Shown in pieces: positions 6,004 to 62,272 of a stretch of 64,000 nucleotides of DNA (position 1 is the stretch's first letter; each line of letters opens with the position of its first letter). The notes beneath the pieces were generated by a model, which worked only from the letters and a program-made list of their open reading frames with translations, was not told the origin of the DNA and searched no databases. A program made the translations under genes and the position numbers. Source of the stretch: Squalus acanthias (taxonomy: Eukaryota); NCBI GenBank assembly GCA_030390025.1, contig CM059431.1:152150001-152214000 (forward strand), given 5' to 3'.

Positions 6004-6905
6004 TCATATTTTATTAACCAAGTTCCGAATCAATGTCCAGGGTGATTGCACCATCTTCACCAGCTCTTTCCTGAATTTGGTTTGGGTCGCTGCATAAATG
6101 CACGTGTTTGTACAGGAGCTCAAATACATGAGCATAAATCCGGTTGCAGAGGCGATGTAAGCAGGAGATGTATAGTCGGGTCGAACGAACGTGACAAGGG
6201 AGTTAATTAAATAACTAACGCAAGTTGTCAGCCACAACAATATAAAACTGCCCGATACACTGAACAGTAAAATGATGGATTTCCTCCGGCTCTCCATCTC
6301 TGGATCGCTCTGATTCTCACTGCAGTGACCCCGGAGTCTCCTGCGGGCTCTACTGGCAGCTAGAATACGCCTGACTGTCAAACCATTAAACAGAAATATC
6401 AAAGCGAAGGGAAGCCCTGGACATACAACAGTTTCGAACCAGGCGAATGCTATACCTATAGGCGAGGTGAAAAATTCAATTTTCAAGCGGCAACCCCAGT
6501 GAATATTGTTAATGATTCGTTCAGTTTCAGATGCAAAAGCAAAGGGGATATTGTCCAACCAGAGCAGAACAGAGACCGTTGTTATGACGGCGGCCGCAGT
6601 TCTCACTGTGCAATATTTCGTTTTAAACTTCTCACAACTTATCGCGACATAGCGGTCAAATGTGAAGGTGACGGTAAACCACACGGACATATCGAGGGCA
6701 ACAGTATTCAAGTATATAAGCAACCTACAGACGGCAGTGTAGCCGAGGAATGAATGTGGAAAGTGATATGTAAAAACGCGATGCAGCAGCACATTGTTCA
6801 TCATGACCAGTAGATCTGCTGTTGCCATGGCCACCATGTAGACCGAGATACCTTTGGAAAGACCGCATTTTCCACCGGAGAGAATCACAATTGTCATTAC
6901 GTTCG
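6004..6905 (-). CDS. GPR139-like class A GPCR copy A, exon 2; spliced product 323 aa, apparently intact
   Basis: Acceptor ccctctttcttacag|CG at 6906/6905. Contains TM2 MATADLL, TM3 FTFDRYVAI, ECL2 Cys (HWGC), TM5 LPFALIFLFN and TM7 SSCTNTCIY. 902+70 = 972 nt; intron 6906-8553. Confidence 0.9.
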
Positions 6906-7234
6906 CTGTAAGAAAGAGGGACAAGCGGTCAGTAACGGGCACTCTCGGATAAATCTCACACCATATTGTGGGGAAATGTTCAGATGTGTCCATGTGCAGG
7001 CGGATTTTTAATTATATATCCGAGCGTTAACGAAGAGGTATTTCTTTTTAAAAAATCGAACACTCAATATAGAGTAACAGAAAATCCGCCATTCTTCCAC
7101 TCATACTTCAGACAGACATCGCCAAATTTAAATCTCACAGTAACTGCTGCAAAGATATGAATGTAAACGACACTTTCAGTTGAGAGAACATCATTCAATT
7201 TAGATCGAAACTTTGCGCTTTTTCTCTGCACAGT

Positions 7235-8020
7235 GCTAATAAATGGCAGGTAACATTAGCGCCACAGAAGTGCCAGGAAATGATTATCTTCAACAAGCGA
7301 GAGTACAACCACCTCTCTTTGACATTCAATGACATTGCCATGGCAAAATCCCCCACCATCAGCATCCTGAAGGTTAACATTGAACAGAAACTTAACTGGA
7401 CCAGCCACATATGTACTGTGGGAAAAAGTGCAGGTCCACGGCTAGGTATTCTGTGGCGAGTGTCTCACCTGAGGTCTCCAAAAGACATTCTACCATCTAC
7501 AAGGCACAAGTAAGGAGTGTGAAGGAATACTCTCCACTTGCCTGGATGACTGCAACTTCAACAACACTCAAGAAGCTCGACACTATCCAAGACAAAGCAG
7601 CCCACTTGATTGCAACCGCATCCACCACCTTTAAGATTCACTCCCTCCACCACCGGCGTACCGTGGCTGCAGTGTGTACCATCTACAAGATGCACTGCAG
7701 CAATTCGCCAAGGCTTATTCGGCAGCACCTCCCAAAACCGCGAAATCTTCCACGTAGAAGGACAAGGGCAGCAGGCGCATGGGGACAGCACCAAGTTTCC
7801 CTCCAAGTCACACATCAGCCTGACTTAGAAGAATATCGCCTATCTGTTATCCTCGCTGGATCAAAATGCTGGAACTCCCTACCTAACATCACAGTGGGAG
7901 TAACTTCACCACACGGAATGGAGCGGTTCAAGAAGGCAGCTCACCACCAGAGTATCAAGGGCAATTAGGGATCAACTTGCCTGCGAAGCCCACATCCAAA
8001 AAACGAATACAAAAAAAACC
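7235..8020 (+). mobile_element. 3' part of a second LINE family (CR1-group, Zenon-like) in the copy A intron; orthologous insertion 42130-44780 in copy C
   Basis: IYKAQVRSV.EYSPLAW...LDTIQDKAA.LI, with tail ggcaattaggga...cccacatcc...gaat(A)n. Confidence 0.8.
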
Positions 8021-8553
8021 CTGGGAAGGTGTTTCGCGGGGGAGGGGTTGGGGGTGGGGGCGGGGTTGCTGCATTTGCTCGGTAACAGAGCGGAAGCTGG
8101 AGGAGACGCGAAGGTTCTTTGCAGCCATGGGGAGGAGAGCAGCAACCTGAGAGGCAATTATGGCTCCAAATCTCTTTCAACGTCCCCTGTTGGGTGTAGG
8201 TGGCTGCAGGCTGAATAATGATCAACGTAAAATAAACAGGCTACAAGTGTACAACTGTCGCGATTAACATCCACACGAAGGAACACATCCTGTAGTGATT
8301 TCTGTACTATTGGTGGAGCCGTGGAATGTCAGCTTCAACCTCGCTGAGTACAGGGAGGAAAGGCGTGCGCCCGGCACCCACGATCTACCGACCAGCCTCA
8401 CCAGCCGCGCGGACTGGTTGGATTTCCACTGATATCCACCAACTTATCCCGATGGATAAGTGACTCTGCAATGAGAGCCTTCTCCGAATCATTACATAAT
8501 CATTAACACTGAGATAGTCAACAGCCATTAGACAACAGGATAAACTGACTTAC

Positions 8554-8623
8554 CGGGAATGCCAAAGGCTGCGAGAGCAGGGTCGAAAAAGATGCGGCCC
8601 ATTTGAATTGTTGGCAGTGCCAT
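8554..8623 (-). CDS. GPR139-like GPCR copy A, coding exon 1 (MALPTIQMGRIFFDPALAAFGIP + 1 nt)
   Basis: ATG at 8623-8621, then 70 nt open, ending at donor G|GTAAGT (intron starts 8553). Phase 1 joins exon 2 in frame (G|CG = Ala), giving ...GIP-ANVMTIVILS, like GPR139 TM1 GLPANILTVIILS. Conserved in copy C. Confidence 0.9.
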
Positions 8624-8704
8624 TTTAATTTTAGCAGAACTTGTGACTTCTGTCTGGCTTTATGGTTAGCATCACAGTGTACAAACGATCCATAAACACT
8701 CTCC

Positions 8705-8756
8705 TTTTATAGAATACTCGGAGCCCCGGTGAGAAATTAAGTCACAGGACAATTGG
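8705..8756 (-). promoter_or_regulatory. Putative core promoter of copy A: TATAAAA and CCAAT
   Basis: Minus-strand TATAAAA at 8711-8705 (about 80 nt upstream of the ATG) and CCAAT at 8756-8752. Both are conserved in copy C. Confidence 0.6.
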
Positions 8757-9049
8757 CGTTAGTTACAGTCACTTAACAAACAAGGCATGATTTTCCGCGT
8801 CAGTGTGCCTGGGACAACAAAGGGGACCTTTTACAACTTATTTCATGAAACTCCATCAATTCAAATGAATAAACGGGAACTCATAGCAGATGGAATGTAC
8901 TGTGCAGAAGCACTGTGATCCCCGAAGGGAAGTTCCCACACTGGCACTGCGTTAGATTACTGGTGCCTCGTAATAATTCGTGAAATCTTAACTCATCCAT
9001 TAGATCGTTAAATTTAGCTTTGCACCATGATGAAAAATGGTGGAGATTC

Positions 9050-10235
9050 TCTAACCTTACTTGTGATGACCCTAATCTAACATTACTGGTGGTGAACCTA
9101 CAATAACATTACTATTGGTGACCCTACTCTAACATTACTGGTGGTGACTCTACTCCAACATTACTGGTGGTGACCCTACTCTAACCTTACAGGTGGTGAC
9201 GCTTATCTAATATTAATGGAGAGAGCCCTGCTCTAAAATTCCTGGCGGTGATCCTACTCTAACATTACTGGTGGCGACCCTTCTCTAACCTTACTGGTGG
9301 TGACTCTACTCTAGCATTACTGGTGGTGATCCTACTCTAACATTACTGGTGGCGAACCTACTCTAGCATTACTGGTGGTGACTTTATTCTAAAATTGGCC
9401 CAAAAATTAGTCCCGCGACGCGAGAGTACGCACTGTGTACTCTCGCGTATTCTGTCACCAATTGCCGGTTTTCTGCATGCACTGCGCATGCGCTGAAAAC
9501 CGGCACTTGTTTTTTGGAAAACGGGGCGTTTACTCGGTTCCACGCGTGCGCGCTACAGGCTGCGCGCACGCTGTGCACTTAGTACTTTGGACGCGCAGGT
9601 AAGGTCGGAAGATTTTAGAAATGAAAAAAGGAGGAGTAAGACCCACTTTTAACAAGGTAAGTAGTGAATTAAGTATTATTTTGAATTTTTTTTAACAGGT
9701 ATATCTTTTTTAGAGACTTTAAAGACAGGTAAGTTTATTTTTATAACTTTTTAAAAGATTTTAAATTTTTTCAAAAGTTTAATTTTTTATTTAAAATGGT
9801 TAATTTATTTAACTATACTTATTTTATTAATGTGATGCTTTTTTTAAATTTAATTGAGGTTTAGCTGTTATTTTGGGGGGGTGTAAGAATCATAGCTTTC
9901 ACAGCACGTATGTGAAACTTATGAATGGAAGATGGTGTGCTGCCATTGGCTCTAACTGTGTCACGTGATCCCACAGCTCGCACGCATTCACTACGCCGGT
10001 GGGAAACGCAAGCACTGCCCAGCTGATGTCCAGAACATCAAGTTCGTGCGAGCTGGATCTGAAAAAGCCAACGCGGAGTGAGAGATCGCGGGGAAGCCTT
10101 ACCCCCGCGTCAACACTCAGTCTTTAATTTCTGGGCCATTATTGATGATGACACTACACTGACGTTACTGGTGGTGATCATATTCTAACATTGCTGGTGG
10201 TAACTCTACTCTGACATTGCTGGTGGTGATCATAA
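9050..10235 (+). repeat. 26-bp minisatellite (ACCCTACTCTAACATTACTGGTGGTG)n, unit A, interrupted by a MITE
   Basis: Direct tandem repeats with no spacers. Confidence 0.95.
9397..10137 (+). mobile_element. Non-autonomous DNA transposon (MITE), PIF/Harbinger-like
   Basis: TIR GGCCCAAAAATTA...TAATTTCTGGGCC with 3-bp TSD ATT (9394-96 and 10138-40). No transposase. Confidence 0.75.
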
Positions 10236-11103: not shown

Positions 11104-11736
11104 GTTAGGACACGCTTGATAATTGATAGGAGACGACTGATAATTGATCATACACGCTTGATAATTCATAGGACAGACTTGATAATTGATAATACTCGCT
11201 TGAATATTGATAGAAGAAGTTTGATAATTGATAATACACGCATGATAATTGATAGGACCTGCTTGATAAGTGAAAATACACGCTTGATAATTGAAAGGAC
11301 ACGCTTTAAAATTGATAGGAGGCGAATGATAATTGATAATACACGCTTGATATTTGATAGGACATGCTTCATAATTGATAATACACGCTTGATAATTGAT
11401 GGAACACGGTTCGTAATTGACTAGATACGCTTGATAATTGATCAGATAAGCTTAATTATTGGTAGGACATGTTTGGTAATTGACAGGAGACGACTGATAA
11501 TCTTTAATACACGCTTGATAACTGATAATACACAATTGATAATTGAAAGGACGCGCTTGATAATTGATAGTACACGCTTGATAATTGATTGGACATGCTT
11601 GATAATCAATAATACAAGCTTGATAATTGATAATACACGCTTAATAATTAAAGGACATGCAGGATAATAGATAATACATGCTTAATAATTAATAGAACAT
11701 GCATGATAAATGTTAAAACGCGCTTGATAATTGATA
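11104..11736 (+). repeat. 21-bp minisatellite (TTGATAATTGATA[AT/GG]ACACGC)n, left part
   Basis: Tandem 21-mers with 7-bp substructure. Confidence 0.95.
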
Positions 11737-13720: not shown

Positions 13721-16700
13721 AAAGCAAAAGATAGGAAGGAGAAAAACAAAATTCCACTCAGAGAAAACAACTGTTTCAATCAAACATGGCCACAGTAAAT
13801 ACTAATTCTAATAGGTCTAAGAGCGTTAAAAAAACAAGCCTGAAGGCTTTGTGTCTTAATGCAAGGAGCATTCGGAACAAGGTGGATAATTAGCTGCGCA
13901 AATAGAGGTAAACGAATATGATTTGATTGGGATTACCGAAACATGGCTCCAGGGTGGCCAAGGCTTGGAACTTAATATCCAGGGGTACTCAATATCGAGG
14001 GAAGATAGGCAAAAAGGAAAGGGATTGGGGTAGCATTGCTGGTTAAAGAGCGGATTAACACAATTGAAAGGATATAAGATCTGATGAAGCGGAATCTGTA
14101 TGGGTGGAACTGATAAATAACAAGGGGCAGAAAACGTGAGTGGGAGTGATATATAGACCTCCAAACAGTAATGCGGAGGTTGGGGATGGCATAACAAGGG
14201 AAATTAGAGAGCGTCCAATCAGGACACAGCAGTCATCTTGGGTGACATTAATCTAAATATAGATTGGGCTAACCAAATTAGTAACAATACAATGGAGGAG
14301 GAATTCCTGGAGTGTTTACGGGATGGTTTCAGGACCAATATGTCAAGGAACCAAGCAGAGATCAGGTCATCTTAGACTGGGTATTATGCAATGAGAAAGG
14401 ATTAATTAGCAATCTTGTTGTGCGAGGCCCCTTGGGTCGGAGCGATCATAATATGATCGAATTCTTCATTAGGTGGGAGAGTGAAGTAGTTGACTCGGAG
14501 ACTAGGGTACTGAATTTAAATAAAGGAAACTTCGATGGTATGAGGTGTGAGTTGGGTGGGATTGATTGGGGAATGTCACTGAAAGGGTTGACGGTGGAGA
14601 GGCAATGGCAAACATTCAAAGACCGCATGGACGAACTACAGAATTTGTTCATCCCAGTTTGGCATAAGAATAAAACAAAAAGGGTGACTCAACAATGGCT
14701 AACAAGGGGAATTAGGGATAGCATAAGATCCAAGGAGAGGGCATATAAATTGACAGAAAAATTAGTAACACTGTGGATTGGGAGCAGTTTAAGATTCCAC
14801 AAAGGAGGACAAAGGGATTAATTAAGAAGGGGAAAATAGAATACGAGAGTAAGCTTGCAGGGAACATAAAAACTGACTGTAAAATCTTTTATTGATATGT
14901 GAAGAGAAAAAGATTAGTGAAATCAAGCATAGATCCCTTGCAGTCAGAATCAGGGGAACTTATGATGGGGAACAAAGAAATGGCAGACCAATTAAATACA
15001 TATTTTGGTTCTGTCTTCACAAAGGAGGACACAAATAACCTCCCAGAGATGTTGGGGAACATAGGGTCTGATGAAACGGAGGAACTGAAAGAAATCAGAA
15101 TTTGTGGGAAATGGTGTTAGGGAAATTGAAGGGATTGAAGGCCGATAAATGCCCAAGGCCTGATAATCTACATCCTAGGGTACTTAAGGAAGTGGCCCTA
15201 GAAACAGTAGATGCTTTGCTGATCATCATCCAACATTCGATGGAATCTGGAACAGTACCCTTGGATTGGAGGGTAGCTAATGTTACCCCACTATTCAAAA
15301 ACGGTGGTAGAGAGAAAACGGGGAATTACAGACCGGTAAGCCTGACATCGGTAGTGGGGAAAATGCTAGAGTTCATTATAAAAGATGTAATAGCTGAGCA
15401 CTTGAAAAACAGTGACAGGATCGGACAAAGTCAACATGTATTTACAAAAGGTAAATCATGCTTGACTAATCTATTGGAATTTTTTGAGGATGTAACTGGT
15501 AAAATAGATAAGTAAGAACAAGAGGATGTGGTGTATTTGGACTTCCAAAAGGCTTCTGATAAGTTCCCGCATAAGAGATTAGCGTGTAAAGTTAAGGCAC
15601 ATGAGATTGGGGGCAAGGTATTGACTTGGATAGAGAACTGGTTGGCAGACAGAAAGCAAAGAGTTGCAATAAACGGGTATTCTTCCGAGTGGCAGGCAGT
15701 GACTAGTGGGGTAACGCAGGGATCGGTCCTTGGACCCCAGCTATTCATAATATATATTAATGATCTAGACAAGGGAACTAGATGTAATATCTCCAAGTTT
15801 GCAGACGACACAAAACTGGGTGTGCGTGTGTGCTGCGAGGAGGATGCCGAGAAACTCCAGGATGATTTGGACAGGTTGGGTGATTGGGCAGAAGCATGGC
15901 AGATGCAATATAACGTGGATAAATGCGAGGTTATCCACTTTGGTGTCAAAAACAGAAAGGCAGATTATTATCTGAATAGCAATAGATTAGGAGAAGGGGA
16001 AGTGCAACGAGACCTGGGTGTCCTTGTGCACCAGTCGCTGAAGGTAAGAATGCAGGTGCAGCAGGCGGTTAAGAAGGCAAATGGTATGTTGGCCTTCATA
16101 GCGAGAGGGTTTGAGTACAGGAACAAGGATGGCTTGCTGCAATTGTACAGGGCCTTGGTGAGACCACACCTTGAGTACTGTGTACAGTTTTGATCGCCTT
16201 ATCTGCGAAAGGATGTTCTTGCCATGGAAAGAGTTCAGCGAAGATTCACAAGGCTGATACCTGGGATGGCAGGAATGACGTATGAAGAGAGATTGGGTAA
16301 ATTGGGCTTATACTCGCTGTAGTTTAGAAGAATGAGAGGGGATCTCATAGAAACTTATAAAATTCTGACAGGACAGGACAAACTAGATGCAGGAAGGATG
16401 TTCCCGATGGTCGGGGAGTCCAGAACCAGGGGTCACAGTCTAAGGATAAGGGGTAAGCCATTTAGGACAGAAATGAGGAGGAATTTACTCACCCAGAGAG
16501 TGGTGAACCTGTGGAATTCTCTGCCACAGAAGGCAGTAGAGGCCAATTCATTAAATAGATTCAAGAAGGAGTTGGATACATTTCTTAAGGCTAAAGGGAT
16601 CAAGAGATATGGGGAGAAAGCAGGGACAGGGTACTGAATTTGGCTGATCAGCCATGATCGCATTAAATGGTTGAGCAGGCTAGAGGGGCCGAATGGCCTA

Positions 16701-24757: not shown

Positions 24758-25232
24758 TGATAGGACACGCTCGATAATTGATAATATACGCTGTATAATT
24801 GATAATTTCTGCTTGATAATTGATAGGATACGCTTGATAATTGATAGGACACGATTGATAATTGATAATACCCGCTTGATAATTGATAATACACGCTTGA
24901 TAATTCAATATACCCGCTTGATAATTCATTGGACATGCTTGATTATTGATAATACGCGATTGATAATTGAAAATACACGCTGGATAATTGATTGGACATG
25001 ATTGATAATTGATAATACACGATTGATAATTGATAACACACGCTTGATTGTTGATAATACACGCTTTGTAACTGATAATTCACGCTTGATAATTTATAAT
25101 AACCGCTTGATAATTGATAATACACGCTTGATAATTGATAAGACATGCAGTATAATTAATAATACACGCTTAATAATAGAAAGGACTTGCATGATAATTG
25201 ATAATACACGCTTGATAATTTCTAGTACATGC
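24758..25232 (+). repeat. 21-bp minisatellite, right part of the same array
   Basis: Resumes right after a CR1 tail. Confidence 0.93.
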
Positions 25233-28200
25233 ATGAGGGAAGAATATAGCGAGGAATGTCCAGTTTTTGAGAGACGATACGCAGAATGGGTGACTGTTTT
25301 TCGAAACACCTCCTTTCAGTCTGTAAGGATGGCCCCGATCTTCCGGTCGCCTGTCACTTTAATTCTCATCTCCACTCCCACTCTGATTTCTTAGGCCTCT
25401 TACACTGTTCCAATGAAGCGCAACGTATGCTCGAGGAACAGCACCTCATCTTTCAATTAGGCACTTTAAAGCCTTCTGGACTCAACTTCGAGTTCAACAA
25501 TTTCAGTTCAGATCCTCTGCCCCTATGTTTTTTCCCATTTTTTTCTCTCTCTCACATGTCATCTGTCGAATATTCAGCCATTGCCATTTGCAATTGATCT
25601 AGAGCCATCTTTTGTTTCTTAACTTGTCCCATTACCATCTCCTTTTGCCTTGCACCATCATCCCTTTTGTCTCTTAATCTCTCCTGCCTTCCATCCTATC
25701 AAAGATATTACCTTTTGTTCTTTCCTCCCATCCCCACTTTCCCAGGCCCTACACTTGCTTAAAAACCTGTTTAGCTCCAGATTTTTCCAATTATGACGAA
25801 GGGTCATCGACCTGAAACATTAACTTTGTTTCATCTCCACATTTGCTGCCTGACCTGCTGAGTATTTCCAGAATTTTCTGCTTTTATTTTCCATTATTTG
25901 AGGAGTTTTGAATGATGCTGAATACTATTCAGTCATCAGCGAACATCCCCATTTCTGACCTTATGTTGGATTGAAGGTCATTGATGAAGCAGCTGAAGAT
26001 GGTTGGGACTGGAACACTGCCCTGAGGAACTGCTGCAGCGATGACCTAGGGCTGTGATGATTGACCTTCAATGTGCCGTTTGATAGCACTTTCGATGACA
26101 CCTTCCATCACTTTGCTGATGACTGAGAGTGGACTGATGGGGTGGTAAATGGCCGGGTTGGATTTGTCCTGTTATTGTGGACAGGACATACCTGGGCATT
26201 TTTCTACATTGTTGGCTATATGCCAGTGTTGTAGCTGTTCTGTAACAGCTTGGCTGGAGGCGTGGCTAGTTCTGGAGCACAAGTCTTCAGCACGATAGCC
26301 GTGATGGTATCGGGGTGCATGGCCTTTCCTGCAGCCACCGCGCTCAGCCATTTCTTGATATCACGTAGAGTGAATCGAATTGGCAGAAGACAGTCTTCTG
26401 TGATGGTGGGATCCTCGGCAGTAGGCTGATATGGATCATCTACTCGTCACTTCTCGCTCAAGATGTTTGCAAGCCCTTCAACCTTGTCTTTTGCACTCAC
26501 TTGCTGGGCTCCAGCATCATTGAGGAAGGGGATATTCATGGTGCTACCTCCTCCCGTCAGTTGTTTAATGGTCCACCACCATTCACGACTGGATGTGGCA
26601 GGACTGCGGAGCTTTGATATGATCCGTTGATTGTGGGATCTCTTAACCCTGTCTACAGCCTGCTGCTTTCGCCTTTGCGACAGGTATATTGGTGAGGATG
26701 AGGTCAAGTAGATTTTTCCCTCGTGTTGATTTTCTCATCATCTGTTGCAGGCCCAGACTGACAGCTATGTCCTTCAGGACTCGGCCAGCTCGGTCAGCAG
26801 TGGTGCTACCGAGCCACTCTTGATGATGGACATTGAAGTCCCCCACCCATTCTGTGCCTTTGCCATTCTCAGTGCCTCTTCCAAGTGATGTTAAATATGG
26901 AGGAGTATTGATTTATCAGCTGAGGAAGGGCAGCAGGTGGTAATCAGCAGGAGGTTTCCTTGCTCATGCTTGTCCTGAATCCATGAGACTTCATGGGGTC
27001 TGGCGTCAATGTTGGGGAGTCCCAGGGGCAGTATTTCAAGCTGAGCTTTCCTGCTGTCTCAACAAAACTTATTAATGTGTTTATTTTCTAATGGCACTGC
27101 TTTCAAATGTAATTTGTCACTCTTTTTTTGGATTTATTCGACATTAAACTGTTTTACAGCATTCTGATCATTCCTCTGCAACATGCAATCATTCCTTTAC
27201 TACTTTTAGCTGCAGAAATTAAAGTAATCATGAAAGACATCAAAAACCTTGTTATTATTCTGTGATACTGTATAATCTTTCACCATTTAATAGATTCAGA
27301 AATTTAAATTCAATATGTCGCTCATGACATATGTTAATCTATTAAAATTCAAAAACTATTCAAGAAAAGCCATCCTTAAAATTTTCCACGAATAGTAAAT
27401 ACACAAATACTCTTCATGGGATCATAGAATCAAATAAACCTTCGGAGTCAGAAGTGCAGAACCCCAATGCAGGACTTCAATCAGAAATATGGGCTGAGAC
27501 TTCAGTGTAGGACTGAGAGAGTGCAGCATTGTTAGAGACAAAGTGCGTTGAATGAAATTTTAAAAGCGGGACCAATCTGCCTGCTGATAGTGTCTGTGTG
27601 GGAGAAATGTGAGCCGCTGAAAGCTGTTGCACAGAATTGAAAGCACGAACACACATAGCTCAGTCGGAAAACTATGAGACTTTTAATCTGATGGATCCAC
27701 GGTTAAAGTCCTTGTAGAGGTGCTGCTTTTGATCATCGCCCCGTTCTATTTGGTCAGGAGACAATAGGGGGCGGAATTGATGGAGAGATCAGCGCCTGCA
27801 ACATTCATGCCAAGATTACAGAAGTATTACAGATAACCACCATTATAAAACCATTCATTGTTTCTACTCTAAAGTTATGATGAACATGTATAAAACACTG
27901 GGTCGGCCTCAACTGGAGTATTGTGTCCAATTTTGGCCTCCGCACTTTAAGAAGGATGTTAAAGCTTTGCGAGGGTTCAGGAAAGATTGATAAGTATGGT
28001 TCCAGGGATAAGCGACTTCAGTTAGGTGGATAGACTGGAGAAGCTGGAGTTGTTCTATTGACAGCAGAGAAGGTTGCGGGAGATTTGATAGACGTGTTCA
28101 AAATCATGAGGGGTCTAGACAGAGTTGATAGAGATAAACTGTTCGCATCGGCAGAAGGGTCCAGAACCAGAGGGCACAGATTTAAGGTGATTGGCAGAAG

Positions 28201-31200
28201 AACCAAATCATGAGGAAAACCTTTTTTTACACAGCGTTTGGTTAGGATCTGGAATGCACTGCCTGAGAGAATGGTGGAGGCAGATTGAATCGTGGCTTCC
28301 AAAACGGAATTGAATAAGTACTTGAAGGAAAAAAAAATGTACGGCTGTGGGGAAAGGGCGGGGGAGTGGGGCTGGCTGAAGTGCTGTCGCATGGAGCTGG
28401 GAGGGGCCTCCTTCTGTGCTGTAATGAGTCTCGGAACACGTTACCGCAGCATGACCGCCTATTTCCACCTCCTTAACATTGCTCATCACCGCCCTTGCCT
28501 CAGCTCATCTGCTGCTAAACACTCATCCATGCCTTTGTTACATTTAGACTTTATTATTCCAACGCAATCCTGGCTGGCCTCCCACATTCTACCCAACATA
28601 AAACTGTCGTTATTCAAAACTCTGCTGCCCGTGTCCTAACTCGCACCAAGTCCCGTTCCCCCATCACTCCTGTGCTCACTGATCTACACTGGCTCCCGGT
28701 TAAGCAATGCCTCATTTACAAAATTCTCATCCGTGTTTTCAATTCCCTCCTTGGCCTCGCCCCTTCCTATCTCTGTAATCTCGTTCAGCCCCACAACCCC
28801 TGCCCCCACAGTTTTCTACGCTCCTCTAATTTTGCCCTCTTAAGCATCCCTGATTATAATCGCTCAACAATTGCTGGCCGTGCCTTCTGTTGCCTTGGCC
28901 GTAAAGTCTGAAATTCCTTGTCTAACCCTCTCTGCCTCGCACCGTTCTTTCCTCCTTTAAGATGCTCCTTAAAACATACATCTTTGACAAAGCTTTTGGT
29001 CACCTGCCCTAATTGCTCCTCATGTGGCTGGGTTTCAAATGTTTGGTCTTATAATACTCCTGTGCAGCGCCTAGGAGCGACTTATTACGTTAAAGGCGCT
29101 ATATAAATACAAGTTGTTGTTGTAGCCATTGCATGATTCTATGATAAAGGAAACGTTATCGGTTATTTAAGCTGGGGCGTCTCAGTCCACTATCTGCAGT
29201 GTAAGGCAGTTAACGCTGATGCCCACATGTTCTACTTTGACCAGTATGTTCTTGGCCCAACTAGGACGGAGGCATTGCTGGATCTGGTGCTGCGGGCTGA
29301 GGTGGGTCAGTTCGACCAAGTGCCTGTTGGAGAACACTTCGATACGAGTGATCATCGTAACATAAGATTTAGATTAGCAATGGAGAAGAGCAAGGACTTA
29401 TCTAGTCTGGAGCTCCTAAACTGGAATAGGGCTAATTTCAATGGGATGCGAAAGGATCGACCCAGGGTTAACTGGAACGAAAAACTTACAGCAAAATACT
29501 GCAACAGAACAATAGGTGATCTTTAATGAGGAGATGTTCCAATTAGAGGCTAGGTACATTCCAACAAGTGGAAAGGGTAAGGGAACCAAAACACGGGCTC
29601 CTTGGATGACGAAGGAGAAGGAGAAGCTGGTGAAACAAAAAAATGGGTGTATGATTCATGTCAGGTGAATTCATCAAGGGAAAATCAGATCAAATACAAT
29701 AAATTGAGATGGGAAGTGAAGATGAAAATAAGATTGGAAAGAGAGAATATGAGAGTAGAATGGCGGTTAACATAAAAGGGATACCAAAAATCTTCTACCG
29801 GCGGGTAAACAGTAAGCGGGTAGTAAGAGGCAGGGTGGGACTTATTAGAGACAAAGAAGGTGATAGTTGCTTAAAGGCACAGGACAAGGGAAGAATAGTC
29901 AATGAATAATTTGTATCGGTGTTTACTAAGGAGGTGAATGCTGACAAAATATTGGCAGATTTGGAAAAGCTAGAAGCAATGGAAGGGGTGAAAATTGATA
30001 GACAGGGGGTCCTAGAAAGGCTGGGTATGCTTAGAGTGAATAAGTCGCCTGCTCATGATGGCTTGCATCCCAGCTTGCTAAGGGAATTGGGGGAGGAGAT
30101 AGCGGAAGAGCTTGGCATAATTTTCCATTCTCCCCTAGGTGCGGAGGTGGTACCTGATGATTGCAAAGTGACAAATATGACACTATTGTTCAAGAAAGGG
30201 TGTAAGGATAATCCTATTAACTACAGGCTGGTCAGTTTAACATCAATGCTGGGTAAAGTTTTAAAAACAATAATTAAGCAAAATGTTAACGGGCACTTGG
30301 AGGGGTTTAAGCGAATTAAGGAGTGCGAACACGGATCTGTAAAAGGCCGATCGTGTTTGACTCATCTCATTGAATTTTTTGATGAAGTAACAGGCAGGAT
30401 TGATGAAGGGAATGCAATGAATGTTGTCTACATGGATTTTCGGAAGGCTTTTGACAAAGTACCACATATGAGGCTGGGTAACAAAATTGAGCCTCATGGA
30501 AAAGGTGGGTCAGTGGCAGCTTGGATAAGGAATTGGCTTAAGGGTAGAAAACAGCCAGTTGTGGTAAATGGCTATTTTTCAGACTGGAGGATAGTAGACT
30601 GTAGAGTTCCCCAATGGTTAGTGCTGGGGTCAATACTTTTTTCATATATATAACTGACTTAAATATTGAAATACAGCGTAGAATTTCTAAATTTGCCGAT
30701 GACTCCAAACTTTGGGGTGTGGCAATCAGTGAGGAATATAACAATCGACTGCAGCAGTACATAGTTTTGCTTGCAGAATGGGCAGACAAGTGGCAGATGG
30801 AATTTAATACAGAGAAGTGTGAGGTGATGCATTTTCGCAGCAGGATCAGGGAGAAGCAATATATACTTAATGACACAGTTTTAAAGAGTGTGCAGGGACA
30901 GAGCGACCTTGGAGTTTAATGTGGATATACCCCTGAAGGTGGCAGGATATATTGAGAGAGTGGTTAGCAAAGCATATGGGATCTTGAGCTTCATACATAG
31001 AGGTATTGAGTACCAAAGTAGCGAAGTTATGCTGAAACTTTTTAAAGCGCTTGTGAGGCCACAATTGGAGTATTGCGTCGAGTTCTGGCCACCACAATTT
31101 AGGAAGAATCTGAAGTCCCTTTTGAGGGTGCAGAGGAGATTTGCCGGAATGGATCCGGGGATAGGGGATCTCAGCTGCAAGGGCAGGCTGGAGAAGATGG

Positions 31201-31210
31201 ATTTGTTTTA
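25232..31210 (+). repeat. Segmental duplication unit B, truncated and lacking the GPCR
   Basis: Colinear with 51580-60700 apart from internal deletions. Ends inside the shared CR1 at an inverted CR1 insertion. Confidence 0.85.
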
Positions 31211-33060
31211 TAGTGTTATAGAGTTATACAGCACAGAAAGAAGCTCTTCGGTCCATCGTGTCCGCGCCGAACATCAAGCCCTGACTACTCTAATCCCATT
31301 TTCCAGCACTTGTTCCGTAGCCTTTCTATGCTATGGCGTTTCAAGTGCTTATCTAAATACTTCTTGAATGTTGTGAGGGTTCCTCCCTCTGCCACCCTTT
31401 CAGGCAGTGAGTTCCAGATTCCAACCACCCTCTGGGTGGAAAAGTTTTGCCTCAAATCCCCTCTAAATCCCCTGCCCCTTACCATGACACTAAGCCCCCT
31501 GGTTATTGAACCCTCAACAAAGGGAAAAAGTTCATTTCTATCTACCCTATCTATGCCCCTCATAATTTTGTACACCACAATCAGGCCCCTCCTCAGCCTT
31601 CACTGATCTAAGGAAAACAACCCCAGCCTGTCCAGTCTCTCTTCATAGCTGAAGCGCTCCAGCCAAGGTAACATCCTTGTGAATCTCCCCTGCACCGTCT
31701 CCAATGCAATCACATCCTTCCTCTAATGTGGCGACCAGAACTGCACATAGTATTCCAGCTGTGGCCTAACTGGCGTTTTGTACAGTTGCATCACAAGCTC
31801 TCTGCTCAGATATTCTGTGCCTCGGCGAATGAAGGCAAGTATCCTATATGCCTTTTTTAACCACCTTATCAACATGTCCTGCTGCCTTCAGGGATCTATG
31901 TACATGCACACCAAAGTCCCGCTGATCCTCTGTCCTTCCTAGGGTCCGACCATTCATTGTGTATTCTCTTGCCTTGTTAGTCCTCCAAAAATGCATCACC
32001 TCACAATTTTCATGGTTAAATTCCATTTGCCACTGTTCTGCTCATCCGAGCAATCCATCTATATCGTCCAAAAAGCGTGAGGTTTCCCTCCTCGCTATTT
32101 ACCACTCCATCAATTTTCGTGTCGTCTGCGAACTTAATGCTCATACCTCCTACATTTATATGTAAATCATTAATGTACACTACAAACAGAAAATGACCCA
32201 GCACCGATACCTGCGGTACACCACTGGACACAGGCTTCCAGTCAGAAAAAAACTCCTTCGACCATTACCCTCTGCCTCCTGCCACCAAGCCAATTTTGGA
32301 TCCATTGTGCCAAATGCCCTGGATCCCATTGGCTCTTAACTTCTTGACCAGTCTCCCATGCGGGACTTTGTCAAAAGCCTTACTGATGTCCATGTAGACC
32401 ACATCAACTGCACTACCCTTATCCACACACCTAGTCACCCCCTCGAATAATTCAATCAAATTGGTTAGACATGATTTCCCCCTGACAAAGCCATGCTGAC
32501 TATCCTTGCCTAATCCTTGCCTCTCCAAGTGGAGACTAATTCTGTCCCTCAGAATTTTTTCCAATAATATCCCTACCACTGATGTTAGGCTCACTGGTCT
32601 GCAATTACTTGGTTTACCCTCAATACCCTTCTTGAATAATGGTACTACGCTGGCTGTCCTCCAGTCCTCTGGCACCTCCCTTGTGGCCAGGGAGGTTCTG
32701 AAAATTTGTGTCTGAGCCCCTGCAATCTGCTCCCTCGCCTCACACAGCAGCCTGGGATGCATCTCCTCTGGTCCTGGGTATGTATCCAATTTTAAGCCCT
32801 CTAAAGCTGTAGTATCTCCTCCCCCTCAGTACAAATTTGTTCAAGTATATCACAATCTCCCTGCCTGATTGTTATGCCTACATCGTCCTTCTCCATAGTG
32901 AACGCAGATGCAAAATATTCATTTAAAACCTCACCTGCATCTTCCGGCTCTATGCACAGATAGCCACTTTGTTCCCTAATGGGCCCTACTCTCTTCCTGG
33001 TTATCCTCTTTACCTTAATATACTTACAAAACACCTTGGGATTGTCCTTTAATTTGCCCG
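31210..33060 (-). mobile_element. CR1 ORF2 3' half, inverted; marks the truncation of unit B
   Basis: RT motifs (AFDKVPH, KFADDTKI) and a tail at ~31211. Confidence 0.88.
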
Positions 33061-40200: not shown

Positions 40201-41482
40201 TTATGACTCTATGACTATAACTCCACTGCTGAAGCTCAACATGACTGTTCTCTTTGAATCTTATGCGATACGTGCCTTGTTATAACGGGAATCGAGTATG
40301 TTCACCCGGGCAAAGAAGCAAAGAAATGTTTCCTGATACCTGTTCATTTTCGCAACAATAATCTATTTTTGTCCCAACTGAAGGAAGGCAAATCAAAAAC
40401 GGAACACAATCTGCAATTAAGCTCTAGTTAGGATAGGAAGCCCGGGTTTGATCTTCATATTTTGTTAACCAAGTTCCGAATCAATGCCCAGGGAGATTTC
40501 ACTAATCTCACCAGCCCTTCCCTGAATCTGGTTTGAGTCGCTGCATAAATGCACGTGTTTGTGCAGGAGCTCAAGTACATGAGCATAAATCCGGTTGCAG
40601 AGGCGATGTATGCAGGAGATGAATAATCGGGTCGAACATGAATGGCCTGGGAGTTAATTAAATAACTGACGATAGATGTCAGCCATAACAATACAAAGCA
40701 GCCCGTTACAGTGAACAGTAAAATGATGGATTTCCTCCGGCTCTCCATCTCTGGATTGCTCTTATTCTCACTGCAGTGACCCCGGAGTCTCCTGCGGGCT
40801 ATACTGGCAGCTAGAATACGCCTGCCCGTCAAACAATTAAACAGAAATATCAAAGCGAAAGGAAGACCTGATGAAATAACAGTTTGGAACCAGACGAATG
40901 CTGTACCCGCAGGCGAGGTAAAAAAAGTCGCTTTTGAAGCAGCAACCCCAGTGAATCCCGTTAATGATTCGGTCAGTTCCAGATGACTACGATAAGGGGA
41001 TTTCGACCGAGCAGAGAAGAAGGGAGACCGTTGTTATGACGGCGGCCGCAGTTCTCACTGTGCAATATTTCGTTTTAAACTTCTCACAACTTATCGCGAC
41101 ATATCGGTCAAATGTGAAGGTGACGGTAAACCACACAGACATATGGAGGGTAACAGCATTTAGGTATATAAGCAACCTACAGACGGCAGTGAAGTTGAGG
41201 AATGAATGTGGAAAGTGATATGTAAAAACGCGGTACAGCAGCACATTGATGATCATGACCAGTAGATCTGCTGTTGCCATGGCCACCATGTAGACCGAGA
41301 TACCTTTGGAAAGACCGCATTTTCCTCCGGAGAGAATCACGATTGTCAGTAGGTTCGCTGTAAGAAAGAGGAACAAGCGATCAGTAACGGGCACACTCGG
41401 ATAAATCTCACACCATGTTGTGTGGAAGTGTGCAGATATGTCCCTGTGCAGGCTGATTTATAATTATATAGGCGAGCGTTAA

Positions 41483-45490: not shown

Positions 45491-45774
45491 CGTCAGTAAC
45501 AGTCACTAAATTAACAAGGCAAGATTCTCCGCATCAGTGTGCCTGGGACAACAAAGGTTACATTTTACAATTCAGTTCATAAAACTCCGACATTTCAAAT
45601 GAATGGACGGGAACTCATAGCAGATGGAATGTACTGTGCACAAGCACCGTGATCCATCACGGGAACATCCCACACGGGCAGTGCGTTAGGTTACTGTTGC
45701 CTCCTAATAATTCGTGAAATCTATAACTCATCCATTAGATTGCTTAATTTAGCCAGCTACCATGCTGATAAATG

Positions 45775-47940
45775 TAGGTGACCCTACACTAACCTTACTG
45801 GTGCTGACTCTAATCTAAAATTACTGGTGGTGACCCTAATCTAACAATACTGGTTGTGAATTCACTCTAATATTACTAGTGGTGACTATATTCTAACATT
45901 ACTGGTTGTGACCCTACTCTAACAGTACTGGTGGTAACCCTACTCTAACGTTAATGGTGGTGACTTTACTCTAACATTACTGGTGGTGACCCTACTCGAG
46001 CACAACTGGTGTTGAATATATTCTAACAGTACTGGTGGTGACTCCACTCTAACATTACTGGTGATGACCCTACTCTAACTTTATTGGTGATGAAACTACT
46101 CTGACATTACAAGTGGTGATCATAATGTAACATTACTGGTGGTGACTCTACTATGAATTTATTGGTGGTGATCATACTTTGACATTACTGGAGGTGACCC
46201 TGCTCTCACATTTCTGGAGAGGACCCTCCTCTAAAATTACTGCTGGTGACTCGACACTAACATTACTGATGAGGACACTACTTAACATTACTGATGATGA
46301 CTCTGCTCTAACATTACTGTTAAGGAACCTACTCTAACATTATTGGTCTACATTTACACTCGCATTACCGGTGGTGACCCGATTCTAACATTACTGGTGA
46401 TGACCTTACTCTAACGTTAACGGCGGAGACCTTACTCTACCATTACCAGGTGTAACTCCGGTCTAACCTTACTGGTGATGAGTCTAGTCAAAATTAACTG
46501 GCGGATAAATACGGTGAACTAACTGGCGATGACCATACACTAACACGACTGGAGGTGACTCTATTCTAACACTATTGTTGGTGACTTTACTCTAGCATTA
46601 CTTGTGGTGACGCTAATCTAGCACTACTGGTGGTGACTCTACTCGAACATTACTGGTGTTGACTATACATTAACATTAATGGTGGAGCCTCTACTCAAAC
46701 GTTATTGGTGGTGACCCTACTCTAACATTACTGGTTGTGACTCTACTTTAACATTGCTGATGGTGACTCTACTCAAACGTTACTGCTGGTGACTATACTT
46801 TAACATTATGTTGGTGACCTTACTCTGACATTACTGGTGGTGACTCTACATTAACATTACTGGTGAGGAACCGACTCTAACATTAGTGGTGGTGACTCTA
46901 CTCTAACATTACTGATGCTGCCCTACGCTAACATTATTGGTGGTGACTCTACTCTAACATTACTGGTGATGACCCTACTCTAACATTACTGGTGATGACC
47001 CTACTCTAACATTATTGGTGATGACATTACTCTTATATTACTAGTGTTGATCATACTCTAACATTACAGATGGTATACTCTAACATTATCGATGTTGACT
47101 CTACTCTATCATTACTGGAGGTGACACTGCTCTAACATGTCTGGTGAGGTCCATACTCTAAAATTACTGTTGGAGAGTCTACTCTAACATTACTGGTGAG
47201 GACACTACTTAACATTCCTGGTGGTGACTCGAATCTAACATTACTGGTGACGAACCAACTCTTATATATCTGGTGATGAATCTACACGAGCATGACCGGT
47301 GGTGACCCGTTTTTACCATTATTGGTGATGATCCTACTCTAACTTTAATTGCGGAGACCATACTCTAACATTATTTGCTCTGACTCCGCTTTAGCATTAC
47401 TGGGGATAAGTCTAGTCAAACACGACTGGTGGTGAGTCTACTCTAACACTAATGTTGGTTACTCTACTCGAGCATTACTTGTGCTGACCATAATCTAGCA
47501 TTACTGGTGGTGACTCTACTCGAACATTACTGGTGTTGACTATATTTAACATTAATTGTGGTGACACTACAACAACATTACTGCTGTTGACTCTACTTTA
47601 ACATTAATTGTGGTGACGCTACTTTAACATTACTGGGGAAGACTCTAATGTAACGTTACTAGTGGTAACTGTAATCTAACATTACTGATGATGAACCTAC
47701 TCTACCATTACTGATGTTGACCCTACTCTAACATTACTGGTGGTGACCCTACTCTAGCATTACTGGCATGATTCTACACTAACATTACTGGTGATGACTC
47801 TGCTCTAACATTACTGGTTGTAACTCTACTATGACATCACTGGTGGAGATTCTACTCTAACATTATTGATGATGACCCTACTCAAACTTTACCGATGTTG
47901 AACCTTCTCTAACATAACTGGTGGTGATCATAAACTAACA
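45775..47940 (+). repeat. 26-bp minisatellite, unit C (roughly 80 copies)
   Basis: Same consensus as unit A. Confidence 0.95.
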
Positions 47941-47944
47941 TGTC

Positions 47945-48875
47945 ATAATTGATATGACACGTTTGATAATTGATAATGCACGCTTTATAATTGATAATAC
48001 GCGCTTAATAATTGGCAATGCGCACTTCATAATTGATAGGACTCGTTTGATAATTGAAAGGAGACGCCTGATAATTGACAGAACGTGCTTGATATTTGGT
48101 AATACACGCTTGATAATTGATAGGACATGCTTGATAATTGATAGGATATGCTAGAGAATGGATAACACACGCTTGATAATTGATAGGATATGTTTGCTAA
48201 TTGATAATACACGTTTGATAATTGATAGGACATGCTTGATAATAGATAATACACGCTTGATTATTGCTAATCCAGGCTTGATAAATGATAATTCACGCTT
48301 GATAATTGATTATACAAGCTTGATAAATGATAATAAACGCTTGATAATGGACAGGACGTGCTTGATAATTGATAATACACGCTTGATAATTGATTGGACT
48401 TGCTTGATATTTGATAGGATATGCTTAATGATTGACATAACCGCCTTGATTATTGATCGGTCATGCAGGATAATTTATAAAACAAGCTTGATAATTGATA
48501 ATACATGCTTGATAATTGATAATACACGCTTGATAATTGATAGGACACGCTTGATAATTGATAATACACGCTTGTCAATTGATAATTCACGCTAGAGAAT
48601 TGATAATACACGCTCGATATTTGATAATACACGCTTGATACTTCACAGGCCACTCCAGCCAATTAATAATGGACGCTTGATAATTGATAATACAAGCTTG
48701 ATAATTGATAATCCACCCTTGATTATCGATTGGACATTTTAATAATTGATTATTCACGCGTGTTAATTAATAATACATGTCTGATAATTGATAGGACACG
48801 CTGGATATTTGATAATACACGCTTGATAATTGACAGAACACTATTGATAATTGATATCACCACCTTGATTATTAT
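47945..48875 (+). repeat. 21-bp minisatellite at the C/D boundary (resumes at 51220-51580)
   Basis: Same consensus; split by TE insertions. Confidence 0.95.
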
Positions 48876-51216: not shown

Positions 51217-51654
51217 ATTATGCTTGATAATTGATAGGACACGCTTGAAAATTGATTGGACATGCATGATAATTGGAAATACAGGCTTGATAATTGATAA
51301 TACACGATTAATATTTGATAATAAACGCTTGTGAATTGAAAGGACACACTTGATAATTGATAAGTCATGGAGGATAATTGATAATACAAGCTTGGTTTTT
51401 GATAGGATACAAATGGTAATTGATACTGCATTCTTGTTGATTGATAGGACATGCTTGATAATTGCTAGTACACGCTTGATAATTTGTAAGACATGGAGGA
51501 TAATTGAAAATACACGAGTAATAAGTGAAAGGACTTGCATGATAATTGACAATAGAAGCTTGATAATTGATAGGACATGCATGAGGGATGAATATAGCGA
51601 GGAATGTCCAGTGTTTGATGAATTCACTCCCTCGGTCCACAGAGAGAGCATTTG

Positions 51655-60700: not shown

Positions 60701-61371
60701 TTCATTAGAGCAAACGAGGTTGAGGAGTGATTTGATAGAGGTGTACAAGAATATGACAGGTTTGGATTGGTTAGACGTGGACAGGCTTTTTCCACTAGTT
60801 AGTGGTACAAGGACTAGGGGACACAGATTTAAGGTTTTGTGCAAGAGATACAGGGGGGAAATTTGAGGAAAAACGTTTTTACACAAGCGAGTGTTGATGA
60901 CCTGGAACTCCCTGACGATGGAAGTGGTGGAAGCGGAGACACTCAATGTTTTCAAGGGGAGGCTGTATAGGCACTTGAGGGAAATAATCTTGCACGGCTA
61001 CGGGAATGGAGCGGGGGAGTGGGACTGACTGGATTGCTATACAGAGAGCCGGCACATACTCGATGGGCCGAATGGCCTCCTTCTGTGCCGTTATGACTCT
61101 GTGACTATAACTCCACTGCTGAAGCTCAACATGACTGTTCTCTTTGAATCTTATGCGATACGTTCCTTGCTATAACGGGACTCGAGTATGTACATCCGGG
61201 GAAAACAGCAAACATCAACCACACGGCTCAAAATGGAAGAAATGTTTCCTGATACCTGTTCATTTTCACAACAATAATCTCGTTTTCGTCCCAACTGAAA
61301 GAAGGCCATTCGAAAAAGGAATACGATCTGTAATTAAACTTTAGTTAGGATAGGATGCTCGGGTTTGATCT

Positions 61372-62272
61372 TCATATTTTGTTAACCATGTTCCGAATAA
61401 GTGTCCAAGGAGATTTCACTAATCTCACCAGCTCTTCCCTGAATTTGGTTTGGGTCGCTGCATAAATGCACGTGTTTGTGCAGGAGCTCAAATACATGAG
61501 CATAAATTCGCTTTCAGAGGCGATGTATGCAGGAGATGTATAATCGGGTCGAACATAAATGGCCAGGGAGCTAAATAAGTAACTAACGATAGATGTCAGC
61601 CATAACAATATAATACTGCCCGATACACTGAACAGTAAAATGATGGATTTCCTCCGGCTCTCCATCTCTGGATCGCTCTGATTCTCACTGCAGTTACCCC
61701 GGAGTCTCCTGCGGGCTCGACTGGTAGCTAGAATACACCTGACTGTCAAACCATTAAACAGTAATATCAAAGCGAAGGGAAGCGTTGGACATACAACAGA
61801 TTCGAACCAGATGTACGCTATACCTGTTGGCGAGGTAAAAAAGTCAATTTTCAAGCGGCAACCCCAGTGGCTGTTGTTAATGATTCGTTCAGTTTCAGAT
61901 GCAAACGAAGATGGGATCTTTTCCAAACAGAGCAGAACAGAGACCGTTGTTATGACGGCGGCCGCAGTTCTCACTGTGCAATATTTCGCTTTAAGCGTCT
62001 CACAACATATCGCGACATAGCGGTCGAATGTGAAGGTGACGGTAAACCACATGAATATACTGATGACAGCACTATTCAAGTATATAAGCAACCTACAGAC
62101 GGCAGTGTAACTGAGGAATGAATGTGGAAAGTGATATGTAAAAACGCGATACAGCAGCACATTGAAGAAGATGACCAGTAGAGCTGCTGTTGCCATGGCC
62201 ACCATGTAGACCGAGATACCTTTGGAAAGACCGCATTTTCTCCGACGAGAATCACGATTGTCAGTAGGTTCG
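61372..62272 (-). pseudogene. GPR139-like GPCR copy D, exon 2 only
   Basis: Acceptor intact at 62273/62272. Exon is 901 nt, with a 1-nt deletion near 62240. The TM2 Asp is changed to Ala (MATAALL). Exon 1 and promoter are deleted at the 62852/62853 junction. Confidence 0.88.

Follow-up and report, generated by a model that had tools for sequence, protein, structure and literature searches.

Typical of the OR, V1R and T2R repertoires are a compact promoter common to the members, variable pockets and a large share of pseudogenes. Cartilaginous fishes carry few olfactory-type receptors despite large olfactory organs, which is a known puzzle. Only 6–13 OR, 3–5 TAAR, 2–4 V1R and 8–43 V2R genes are given for them in the accessible part of PMC10116579, and the sum of these maxima is at most ~65. 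The agonist-pocket residues of GPR139, the nearest receptor of solved structure to the genes described here, are E3.32, F3.33, H5.43, R6.51 and N7.38 (PMC8807744). Orphan receptors of fishes and coelacanth that adjoin GPR139 and GPR142 were named GPR210A/B (Rinne et al. 2019, PMC6504862); the word "shark" is absent from that paper's main text.

The proteins of the present family are auto-named "probable GPR139" by NCBI. Literature searches for an expansion returned no description of it, with most subscription papers and bioRxiv supplements outside their reach. The accessible parts of two shark genome papers (PMC10620051 and bioRxiv 10.1101/2025.02.19.638963) contain no GPR or GPCR mention, and those of the supplements to PMC11057056, PMC13188829 and PMC13200729 hold no row for it. 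As far as these searches reach, the family appears to be undescribed and to stand under a misleading label in public annotations.

Three receptor genes in the window

The window is the whole stretch of DNA that was analysed, 64,000 nt in length. On its minus strand lie three paralogous 7TM genes, each a two-exon class A GPCR. Each lies within a duplicated unit, as the sequence-only reading had described; the 3' flanks of the units align over 4.3–5.6 kb at 84–86% identity in a self-BLAST. The coding features are the following.

8623-8554, minus strand: copy 1 exon 1, 23 codons + 1 nt, GTAAGT donor
6905-6004, minus strand: copy 1 exon 2, mid-TM1 to stop, intact; open frame, AG acceptor
45357-45288, minus strand: copy 2 exon 1, open, GTAAGT donor
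41357-40455, minus strand: copy 2 exon 2, a pseudogene with a TAG in frame at 40989-40987 (codon 147) and a +1 frameshift at 40920-40927
62272-61372, minus strand: copy 3 exon 2, a pseudogene with 1 nt lost at ~62240 and A in place of D2.50
62852..62854, minus strand: copy 3 deletion junction; ~660 bp lost, with promoter, TATA box and exon 1
27439..31209, no strand assigned: a fourth 3' flank of the unit that lacks a receptor gene; 85–86% to the three gene-bearing flanks (self-BLAST)

Spliced through a phase-1 GT..AG intron, copy 1 gives 972 nt that read through 323 aa without a stop. The size and ending of its exon 1 are matched in NCBI-annotated relatives and at other loci of the genome. The protein matches Pfam 7tm_1 (E 2e-22; 80.2 bits against a cut-off of 30.5). 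AlphaFold2 folds exon 2 into seven helices and an ECL2 hairpin (pLDDT 87.7), and Foldseek gives a TM-score of ~0.7–0.77 to class A structures. Exon 1 contributes only ~23 residues, and the N-terminus of copy 1 lacks a glycosylation site. Contigs of four RNA runs (X1, X2, X4 and X5) over 5900-8900 cover mostly intronic repeat, and no exon 1–exon 2 joint is among the joints listed for them, a pattern that weighs neither for nor against expression.

The lesions of copies 2 and 3 differ and arose independently: a stop and a frameshift in the former, a frameshift and the ~660-bp deletion in the latter. The earlier count of one intact and two separately inactivated genes is thus upheld. Sequencing error was ruled out as the origin of the two pseudogenes because either one carries a pair of unrelated lesions, of which one is large or regulatory. 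Open siblings exist for both, at 96.6% identity to copy 2 exon 2 (L008) and 96.2% to copy 3 exon 2 (L007). The window copies are not mutual closest relatives (~89–90% at the nucleotide level), and the closer sibling of each lies 200–460 kb away. No receptor was matched by tblastn in the fourth 3' flank (27439..31209).

The large deletion in copy 3 is absent from the sequence-only account. The alignment of copy 3 to copy 1 runs to 8957 and resumes at 8296, which places the junction at 62853.

Kinship to GPR139 and GPR142

The genome carries a single GPR139 (C18) and a single GPR142 (C24), both away from the family. Their orthologs are 86–96% conserved from shark to tetrapods. We built a tree with GPR139 and GPR142, as the sequence-only reading had proposed. 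The family forms a separate clade that groups with two fish/coelacanth orphan clades, apart from GPR139/142 (support 99/98; 98/96 in a second tree), and an AU test rejects its grouping with GPR139 (p 1.2e-61; 22 rows vs 18). One gene of each fish/coelacanth clade was found in the shark's own genome (C17 and C9). These two clades are likely the GPR210 subtypes; the accessible part of PMC6504862 uses Ensembl ids, and our tree sequences carry UniProt ids. The sister group of the shark family is an amphibian/sturgeon orphan (support 100/99). Matches to this gene came from amphibians and a sturgeon; none of 25 was from an amniote. Deeper relatives are peptide-receptor-like and fall in FMRFamide-receptor-like clusters.

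In a PDB search with the family profile, human GPR139 comes first (E 4.6e-25; 91 bits vs 68 for the next), and GPR139 is also the automatic name of 114 of the top 120 homologs. The single-sequence PDB search, which places GPR139 below four other receptors, and Foldseek, which places it 12th, do not discriminate among class A receptors. Pfam returns 7tm_1 only, the best named relatives are GPR139-like, and one TAAR comes last of 19 PDB hits. Judged by best matches, the family is outside the OR, TAAR, V1R, V2R and T2R families, all five of which are absent from our trees; the first four had already been set apart in the sequence-only reading. As the trees place it, the family would descend from an orphan lineage sister to GPR139/GPR142 and be a distant cousin of GPR139 rather than a set of copies of it. 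GPR139 as the nearest receptor of solved structure is upheld; a reading of these genes as amplified GPR139 is not supported.

The binding site bears on the idea that these are amplified GPR139 paralogs sensing L-Trp/L-Phe like the mammalian receptor. The ECL2 tryptophan and W6.48 of GPR139 do align with the family, which together with the profile search and the automatic names would suit this idea. The five pocket residues are not conserved, however. Among 93 genes, E3.32 is outside the nine commonest residues, and F3.33 occurs in 10, H5.43 in 16, R6.51 in 3 and N7.38 in 4; copy 1 has N, T, E, T and F at these sites. With the true single-copy GPR139 and GPR142 present elsewhere, the AU rejection and the low ranks in the single-sequence searches, we consider such paralogs very improbable. 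Shared aromatic amino-acid ligands find no backing in the polar pocket residues. Nor does the NTCIY variant, to which the sequence-only reading appealed, indicate a small-ligand receptor: human GPR139 itself reads NFFLY there, so the loss of the NPxxY proline was inherited from the wider group and is uninformative on ligand size.

Copy number, promoter and selection

A TM3 family motif has 2,388 matches in the genome and an ICL3 family motif 1,573, with 0 for the control in each case. All of the first 100 TM3 loci sampled are family members; 57 have an intact exon 2 and 43 are broken. We estimate roughly 600–1,400 intact genes in the genome. The clusters lie on at least eight chromosome-scale contigs. 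The family therefore extends far beyond the three copies of the window, and these >2,000 clustered loci, many of them broken, agree with the lineage-specific tandem expansion under birth-and-death evolution that had been put forward. Unequal crossing-over, together with block duplication, would supply new copies, of which about four in ten decay. The view that unplaced scaffolds are mere haplotype copies was ruled out at one locus, L028, for which C7 offers no match above 93%; another scaffold carries a near-identical twin of it.

The upstream regions share further elements.

8703..8712, minus strand: copy 1 TATA box (CTATAAAAGG), 88 bp above the ATG
8757..8782, minus strand: copy 1 26-bp promoter element, ~70 bp above the TATA box
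45491..45516, minus strand: copy 2 promoter element, decayed, with several changes including the TGTTTGTT core
9049..9396, no strand assigned: 26-bp minisatellite array directly upstream of the copy 1 promoter (TRF)
45777..47927, no strand assigned: 26-bp minisatellite array of 83 units, upstream of copy 2 (TRF)
62934..64000, no strand assigned: 26-bp minisatellite array upstream of copy 3, continuing beyond the window (TRF and alignment to the copy 1 unit)

The promoter element starts with what we take to be a forkhead-like core. It is common to subfamilies only ~50% identical in protein, has 219 exact genome matches (control 0) and is the best site in 8 kb in 6/7 held-out promoters. This test was limited to loci with an exon 1, because 9/20 divergent loci gave none within 8 kb. 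A TATA-like box occurs at a similar place in most recovered promoters. The element is decayed in pseudogene copy 2 and deleted in pseudogene copy 3. The copy 1-type minisatellite has the same position in other C7-type units, and its first genome match lies at the start of the C7 cluster. An Rfam search returned no match.

The signalling side of the receptor is conserved. D2.50 and DR are present in 93/93 genes (DRF in 72, DRY in 15) and W6.48 in 86/93. P6.50 is lost (T in 65/93, P in none listed), and P7.50 is kept in ~10/93. Pocket positions have an entropy of 1.8–3.3 bits over the 93 genes, save for two conserved tryptophans and T6.50. We fixed 36 pocket positions beforehand by generic helix numbering and measured selection on tip pairs. 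Across 39 independent paralog pairs, dN/dS is 0.97 (0.77–1.16) at the pocket positions and 0.35 (0.31–0.39) in the cytoplasmic half, where purifying selection is found in all three distance classes (0.25–0.40). The pocket value is above that of other outer-helix sites (permutation p 0.007). It is not above 1, and relaxed constraint accounts for it no less well than diversifying selection. The whole looks like a one-transducer, many-ligand repertoire.

These data also weigh on a germ-line or reproductive role, or on an amplification that largely rode along with repeat-driven segmental duplication, with a copy number of little adaptive value. The units are set in LINE fragments and minisatellites with co-duplicated flanks, and some subfamilies are near-identical recent bursts by pair distance; these points, like the broken loci, speak for it. 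Purifying selection on the cytoplasmic half argues the other way, as do a promoter element kept across subfamilies and, in the trees, subfamilies common to more than one species. The coding exons of the window copies are also more alike (89–90%) than their flanks (84–86%). We find this explanation improbable.

Function and comparison with known receptors

We give an about even chance to the reading that the cartilaginous-fish family is a chemosensory repertoire, with different pockets and one shared G-protein pathway in one cell type. The promoter element and TATA box would drive expression in one specialised cell type, presumably epithelial sensory cells of nose, taste, gill, skin or gut. The ligands would differ from receptor to receptor and be small molecules carried in water or in a lumen, or short peptides; the binding site should lie inside the helix bundle, because there is no N-terminal domain. 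The conserved inner face would couple to one G protein, for which Gq/11 is a guess from GPR139. A clustered multigene family with many pseudogenes, a variable pocket, a conserved signalling face and a promoter element common to several subfamilies speak for a chemosensory role, as do the small known olfactory sets of cartilaginous fishes, and the lack of amniotes among the sister-gene matches fits an aquatic one.

Several points stand against it. The forkhead-like core singles out no one tissue. The conserved sister gene of amphibians resembles a receptor with an endogenous ligand. In PMC10116579, the catshark nose is explained by microvillous neurons that express V2Rs. In a catshark atlas, no GPCR is among the 50 most specific genes of the brain-and-olfactory-epithelium library (accessible part of PMC11979771), a weak point because any one receptor of a large family gives a low signal in bulk RNA.

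Immune and somatosensory GPCR families fit the same signature, which also counts against the chemosensory reading. The main rival is an immune or somatosensory surveillance repertoire that would work like the rodent MRGPR or FPR expansions: leukocytes, mast-like cells or sensory neurons of the skin would use it to sense microbial, parasite or damage-derived peptides and metabolites. The structural signatures fit it equally well, and the peptide-receptor-like deeper relatives would suit it. The missing TM6 proline makes a non-canonical switch, and MRGPRs too have a non-canonical TM6 switch. Known immune GPCR expansions, of tens of genes, are however far below about a thousand, and dN is not in excess over dS at pocket or loops, contrary to an arms-race prediction. 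We regard this rival as rather unlikely.

Whatever its tissue, the family would rank among the largest vertebrate receptor repertoires. Only tentatively do we go further and propose for sharks and rays an unrecognised chemosensory superfamily of about a thousand functional genes, of GPR139-related orphan origin, with one shared promoter element active in sensory cells. If true, it would be as large as the mammalian OR repertoire and tens of times the known shark olfactory families, and it would account for a keen chemical sense alongside very small OR/TAAR/V1R sets. The promoter element is a way in to the cell type, and in Xenopus and axolotl the conserved sister gene could serve to study, in the laboratory, what the ancestral receptor did. 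The question of the tissue is open to direct test with catshark RNA-seq that already exists.

Like GPR139 and GPR142, the family is class A 7TM with a short N-terminus and no proline at 7.50, and its long exon begins at the same TM1 position as that of the genome's own GPR139. Unlike these single-copy genes, it has >2,000 loci and is without the pocket residues and P6.50. Compared with aligned GPR139, it has one more ICL3 motif, and its ECL2 is longer and contains an additional cysteine. Beside the two fish/coelacanth clades of GPR210-like orphans, it is a third clade. The amphibian/sturgeon orphan (Xenopus tropicalis P0411, Pleurodeles P0221, Acipenser P0427), also auto-named "probable GPR139", shares the DPE-x-x-RR ICL3 motif; unlike the family, it has one cluster per species, 66–74% identity among amphibians and a retained P6.50, with no expansion as far as the search shows. 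With OR, TAAR, V1R, V2R, T2R and rodent MRGPR/FPR the family has in common clusters, birth and death, a variable pocket, a conserved signalling face and a compact shared promoter. It differs from all of these repertoires in its GPR139-related ancestry and its two coding exons.

Receptor genes of the window and their siblings

The window holds three class A GPCR genes, copies 1 to 3, all on the minus strand. The sequence-only reading had described three seven-transmembrane genes in one orientation, one intact and two with independent lesions. This arrangement is real, and the system is larger than was first noted.

Features of the window
8782–8757, minus strand: 26-bp promoter element of copy 1, about 70 bp above the TATA box
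8623–8554, minus strand: exon 1 of copy 1, 70 nt
6905–6004, minus strand: exon 2 of copy 1
40989–40987, minus strand: TAG stop in copy 2 (both exons present)
40920–40927, minus strand: +1 insertion in copy 2
near 62240, minus strand: 1-nt deletion, frameshift in copy 3
9049–9396, 45777–47927, 62934–64000: 26-bp minisatellite arrays
11106–11736, 24758–25220, 47945–48856, 51222–51584: four 21-bp minisatellite arrays
4148–5227, 15075–16634, 29910–31364, 38665–40282: examples of LINE fragments

The two exons of copy 1, joined across a phase-1 GT..AG intron, encode an intact protein of 323 aa. Copy 3 also lacks approximately 660 bp, so that its promoter, TATA box, and exon 1 are gone. In copy 2 the promoter element survives in decayed form, and in copy 3 it has been deleted. 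The three copies are approximately 89–90% identical to one another, and their nearest siblings lie elsewhere on contig C7: L002 (99.3%) and L003 (97.3%) for copy 1, L008 (96.6%) for copy 2, and L007 (96.2%) for copy 3. The exon 2 frames of L007 and L008 are open. These two loci are 20 kb apart, and copies 2 and 3 are 21 kb apart. From the matching spacing and the open siblings, we infer duplication of a larger block, followed by the death of the window versions of the pair. The birth-and-death evolution proposed earlier is thus borne out by open siblings of dead copies.

The 3′ flanks of the units align across 4.3–5.6 kb at 84–86%. A fourth copy of this flank (27439–31209) has no gene and ends where an inverted LINE fragment joins it. 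The window is shark-type DNA with many repeats, namely LINE fragments and minisatellites of 21 and 26 bp. A large share of the duplicated units consists of decayed fragments that we take, from their translations, to be CR1/L2-type LINE reverse transcriptase. In receptor units of the C7 type, the promoter is immediately preceded by the 26-bp minisatellite. This repeat has 21,904 matches in the genome (control 0), the first of which falls at the start of the C7 cluster, from C7:136,955,207. None of these genome-wide matches falls on C1–C6, and the repeat therefore marks the C7-type subfamily only. It may aid unequal crossing-over or have a regulatory role.

Size and range of the family

Searching the genome at protein level gave 4,651 first-look candidates. 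The 131 that were scored were all near full-length, with at least 66% identity, and a second query recovered further clusters. A DNA search gave 2,574 first-look candidates. Two degenerate family motifs were counted genome-wide, giving 2,388 matches for the TM3 motif and 1,573 for the ICL3 motif (reversed controls 0). In the stretch covered by both motif listings, 58 loci carried both (TM3 100, ICL3 89); the capture–recapture estimate is 2,700–3,700 loci, which is rough because motif decay is not independent.

The first 100 TM3 matches by contig order (C1–C7, not a random sample) all align to the family. Exon 2 was open and preceded by an acceptor in 57 (Wilson interval 47–66%).

Sampled TM3 loci with open exon 2, by contig
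C1: 16/26
C3: 15/27
C4–5: 1/3
C6: 11/18
C7: 14/26

Scaled up, this corresponds to approximately 1,360 loci with intact exon 2, a figure that reflects exon 2 status only. The exact promoter-element pattern has 219 genome matches (control 0). Unplaced scaffolds hold many copies (127 of these 219 matches), some of them near-identical to one another; if all scaffold copies were redundant, approximately 570 loci with intact exon 2 would remain. The 100 element matches listed fall on C7, C26, C29, and scaffolds. Two of them (C7:159,680,129 and 159,770,921), near the end of C7 and outside the mapped gene range, probably mark further genes.

Clusters are found on C1, C3, C6, C7, C12, C26, C29, and C31, and those of C3, C7, and C26 sit toward contig ends. 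Three loci on C12 (L034, L035, and L039; 90.76–90.86 Mb) make up a small, divergent subfamily in which ECL2 is short, position 6.51 is R, and every gene is bordered by a GA-rich tandem repeat.

In a search for homologs, 1,701 proteins scored E ≤1e-5. All 120 of those listed belong to sharks and rays, and the automatic name of 114 is 'probable/putative GPR139'. When 20 more distant representatives were looked up, skate, catshark, and chimaera (Callorhinchus milii) joined the list. The chimaera protein places within the family, so the family is older than the chimaera–elasmobranch split; the copy count is that of the present genome alone.

Relation to GPR139 and orphan receptors

The sequence-only reading took these genes for amplified GPR139-like receptors. 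A PDB search with a profile built from 49 family sequences and three salamander proteins (52 in all) placed human GPR139 top at 91 bits, with the next at 68; in a single-sequence PDB search, GPR139 was not ranked first. The genome has one GPR139 gene, on C18, which matches named shark, ray, coelacanth, and most tetrapod GPR139 at 86–96%, and one GPR142 gene, on C24. In maximum-likelihood trees, GPR139 and GPR142 form a clade (100/100). The shark family groups with an amphibian/sturgeon gene (100/99–100), then with two orphan clades (98–99/96–98), and amphioxus proteins are next. Monophyly of the shark genes excluding the amphibian clade had support of 98/96 in one tree and only 92/74 in another. 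Forcing the family and GPR139 into one clade costs 172 log-likelihood units (AU p 1e-61), and the proposed grouping is rejected.

The sister gene is present in salamanders, many frogs including Xenopus tropicalis, a caecilian, and sturgeon, with one cluster per species. No amniote or teleost was among its 25 matches, an absence that is soft since the search was word-seeded. P0221 (Pleurodeles), P0411 (X. tropicalis), P0413, and P0427 (Acipenser) are proteins of this conserved orphan, automatically named GPR139 and sister to the shark expansion. The receptor offers a ready laboratory model.

L031 (C17:37.41 Mb) and L032 (C9:120.53 Mb) are single orphan GPCR genes with open frames; they are related to GPR139 and orthologous to coelacanth and fish orphans. 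Rinne et al. gave fish and coelacanth orphans beside GPR139/142 the names GPR210A/B (PMC6504862). GPR210A/B likely correspond to the C17- and C9-type clades, and the shark orthologs seem undescribed so far.

Promoter, ligand pocket, and possible function

We built an element matrix from ten C7/C26-type promoters and scanned 16 held-out 8-kb regions with it. Seven had a recognizable exon 1 (C1, C3, and C6; proteins sharing approximately 50% identity with copy 1). In six of them the best site was 47–73 bp above a TATA-like box, and in the seventh the second best was. Among the nine regions lacking exon 1, a strong site occurred in one and no element site in the other eight. At L167 (C3:86.30 Mb), an otherwise intact exon 1 lies approximately 900 bp away from the TATA box and element; the intervening DNA is probably an insertion in the 5′ UTR and puts the site approximately 1 kb from the ATG. 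Over its first eight bases, the element resembles a forkhead site.

The structure model of exon 2 shows seven helices, an ECL2 hairpin, and helix 8 (pLDDT 87.7). We compared 93 genes (57 open sampled loci and 36 earlier loci; L014 and L018 were left out as broken, and L016 was included despite a late stop). The inner helix halves and cytoplasmic loops are nearly invariant, and the outer halves and loops are strongly variable. The GPR139 agonist contacts compared, from PMC8807744, include E3.32, F3.33, H5.43, R6.51, and N7.38. GPR139/142 keep these five unchanged, but in the family they are hypervariable (2.2–3.3 bits). Of the contacts, the family retains only W6.48 and the ECL2 tryptophan; it has lost P6.50. 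GPR139-like sensing of Trp/Phe is very improbable.

Substitution rates (dN/dS) were calculated with the gene-wide synonymous rate on 39 of 46 independent tip pairs (distance ≤0.2). The inner half gives 0.35 (0.31–0.39), outer helix sites that are not part of the pocket 0.72, the extracellular loops 0.84, and the 36 pocket positions 0.97 (0.77–1.16), or 0.82 using the local synonymous rate. The pocket value is above that of the remaining outer-helix sites (p 0.007), and the seven more distant pairs show the same contrast (0.25 vs 0.81). These rates show that the genes function and that their signalling face is under constraint. A germ-line or passenger explanation appears unlikely. The pocket value would fit either positive selection or mere freedom from constraint.

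Many receptors with one constrained signalling face and one promoter type would make a combinatorial sensor array in a single cell type, each receptor without an N-terminal ligand domain and with its own variable pocket. Chemosensation in sensory epithelia has an even chance of being the role of such an array. Cartilaginous fishes have only 6–13 OR, 3–5 TAAR, 2–4 V1R, and 8–43 V2R genes, according to PMC10116579. Against the nose in particular, the same paper accounts for it with V2R neurons, and a catshark atlas reports no GPCR among the top 50 olfactory-library genes (PMC11979771). An immune or somatosensory role is possible, at a clearly lower probability.

The family proteins are already public under an automatic, misleading name. 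A literature search (subscription papers outside its scope) and term look-ups in genome papers returned no description of the expansion, its origin, or the promoter. An expanded GPCR repertoire is a known kind of system; the origin from an orphan lineage and the scale in sharks appear not to have been known previously.
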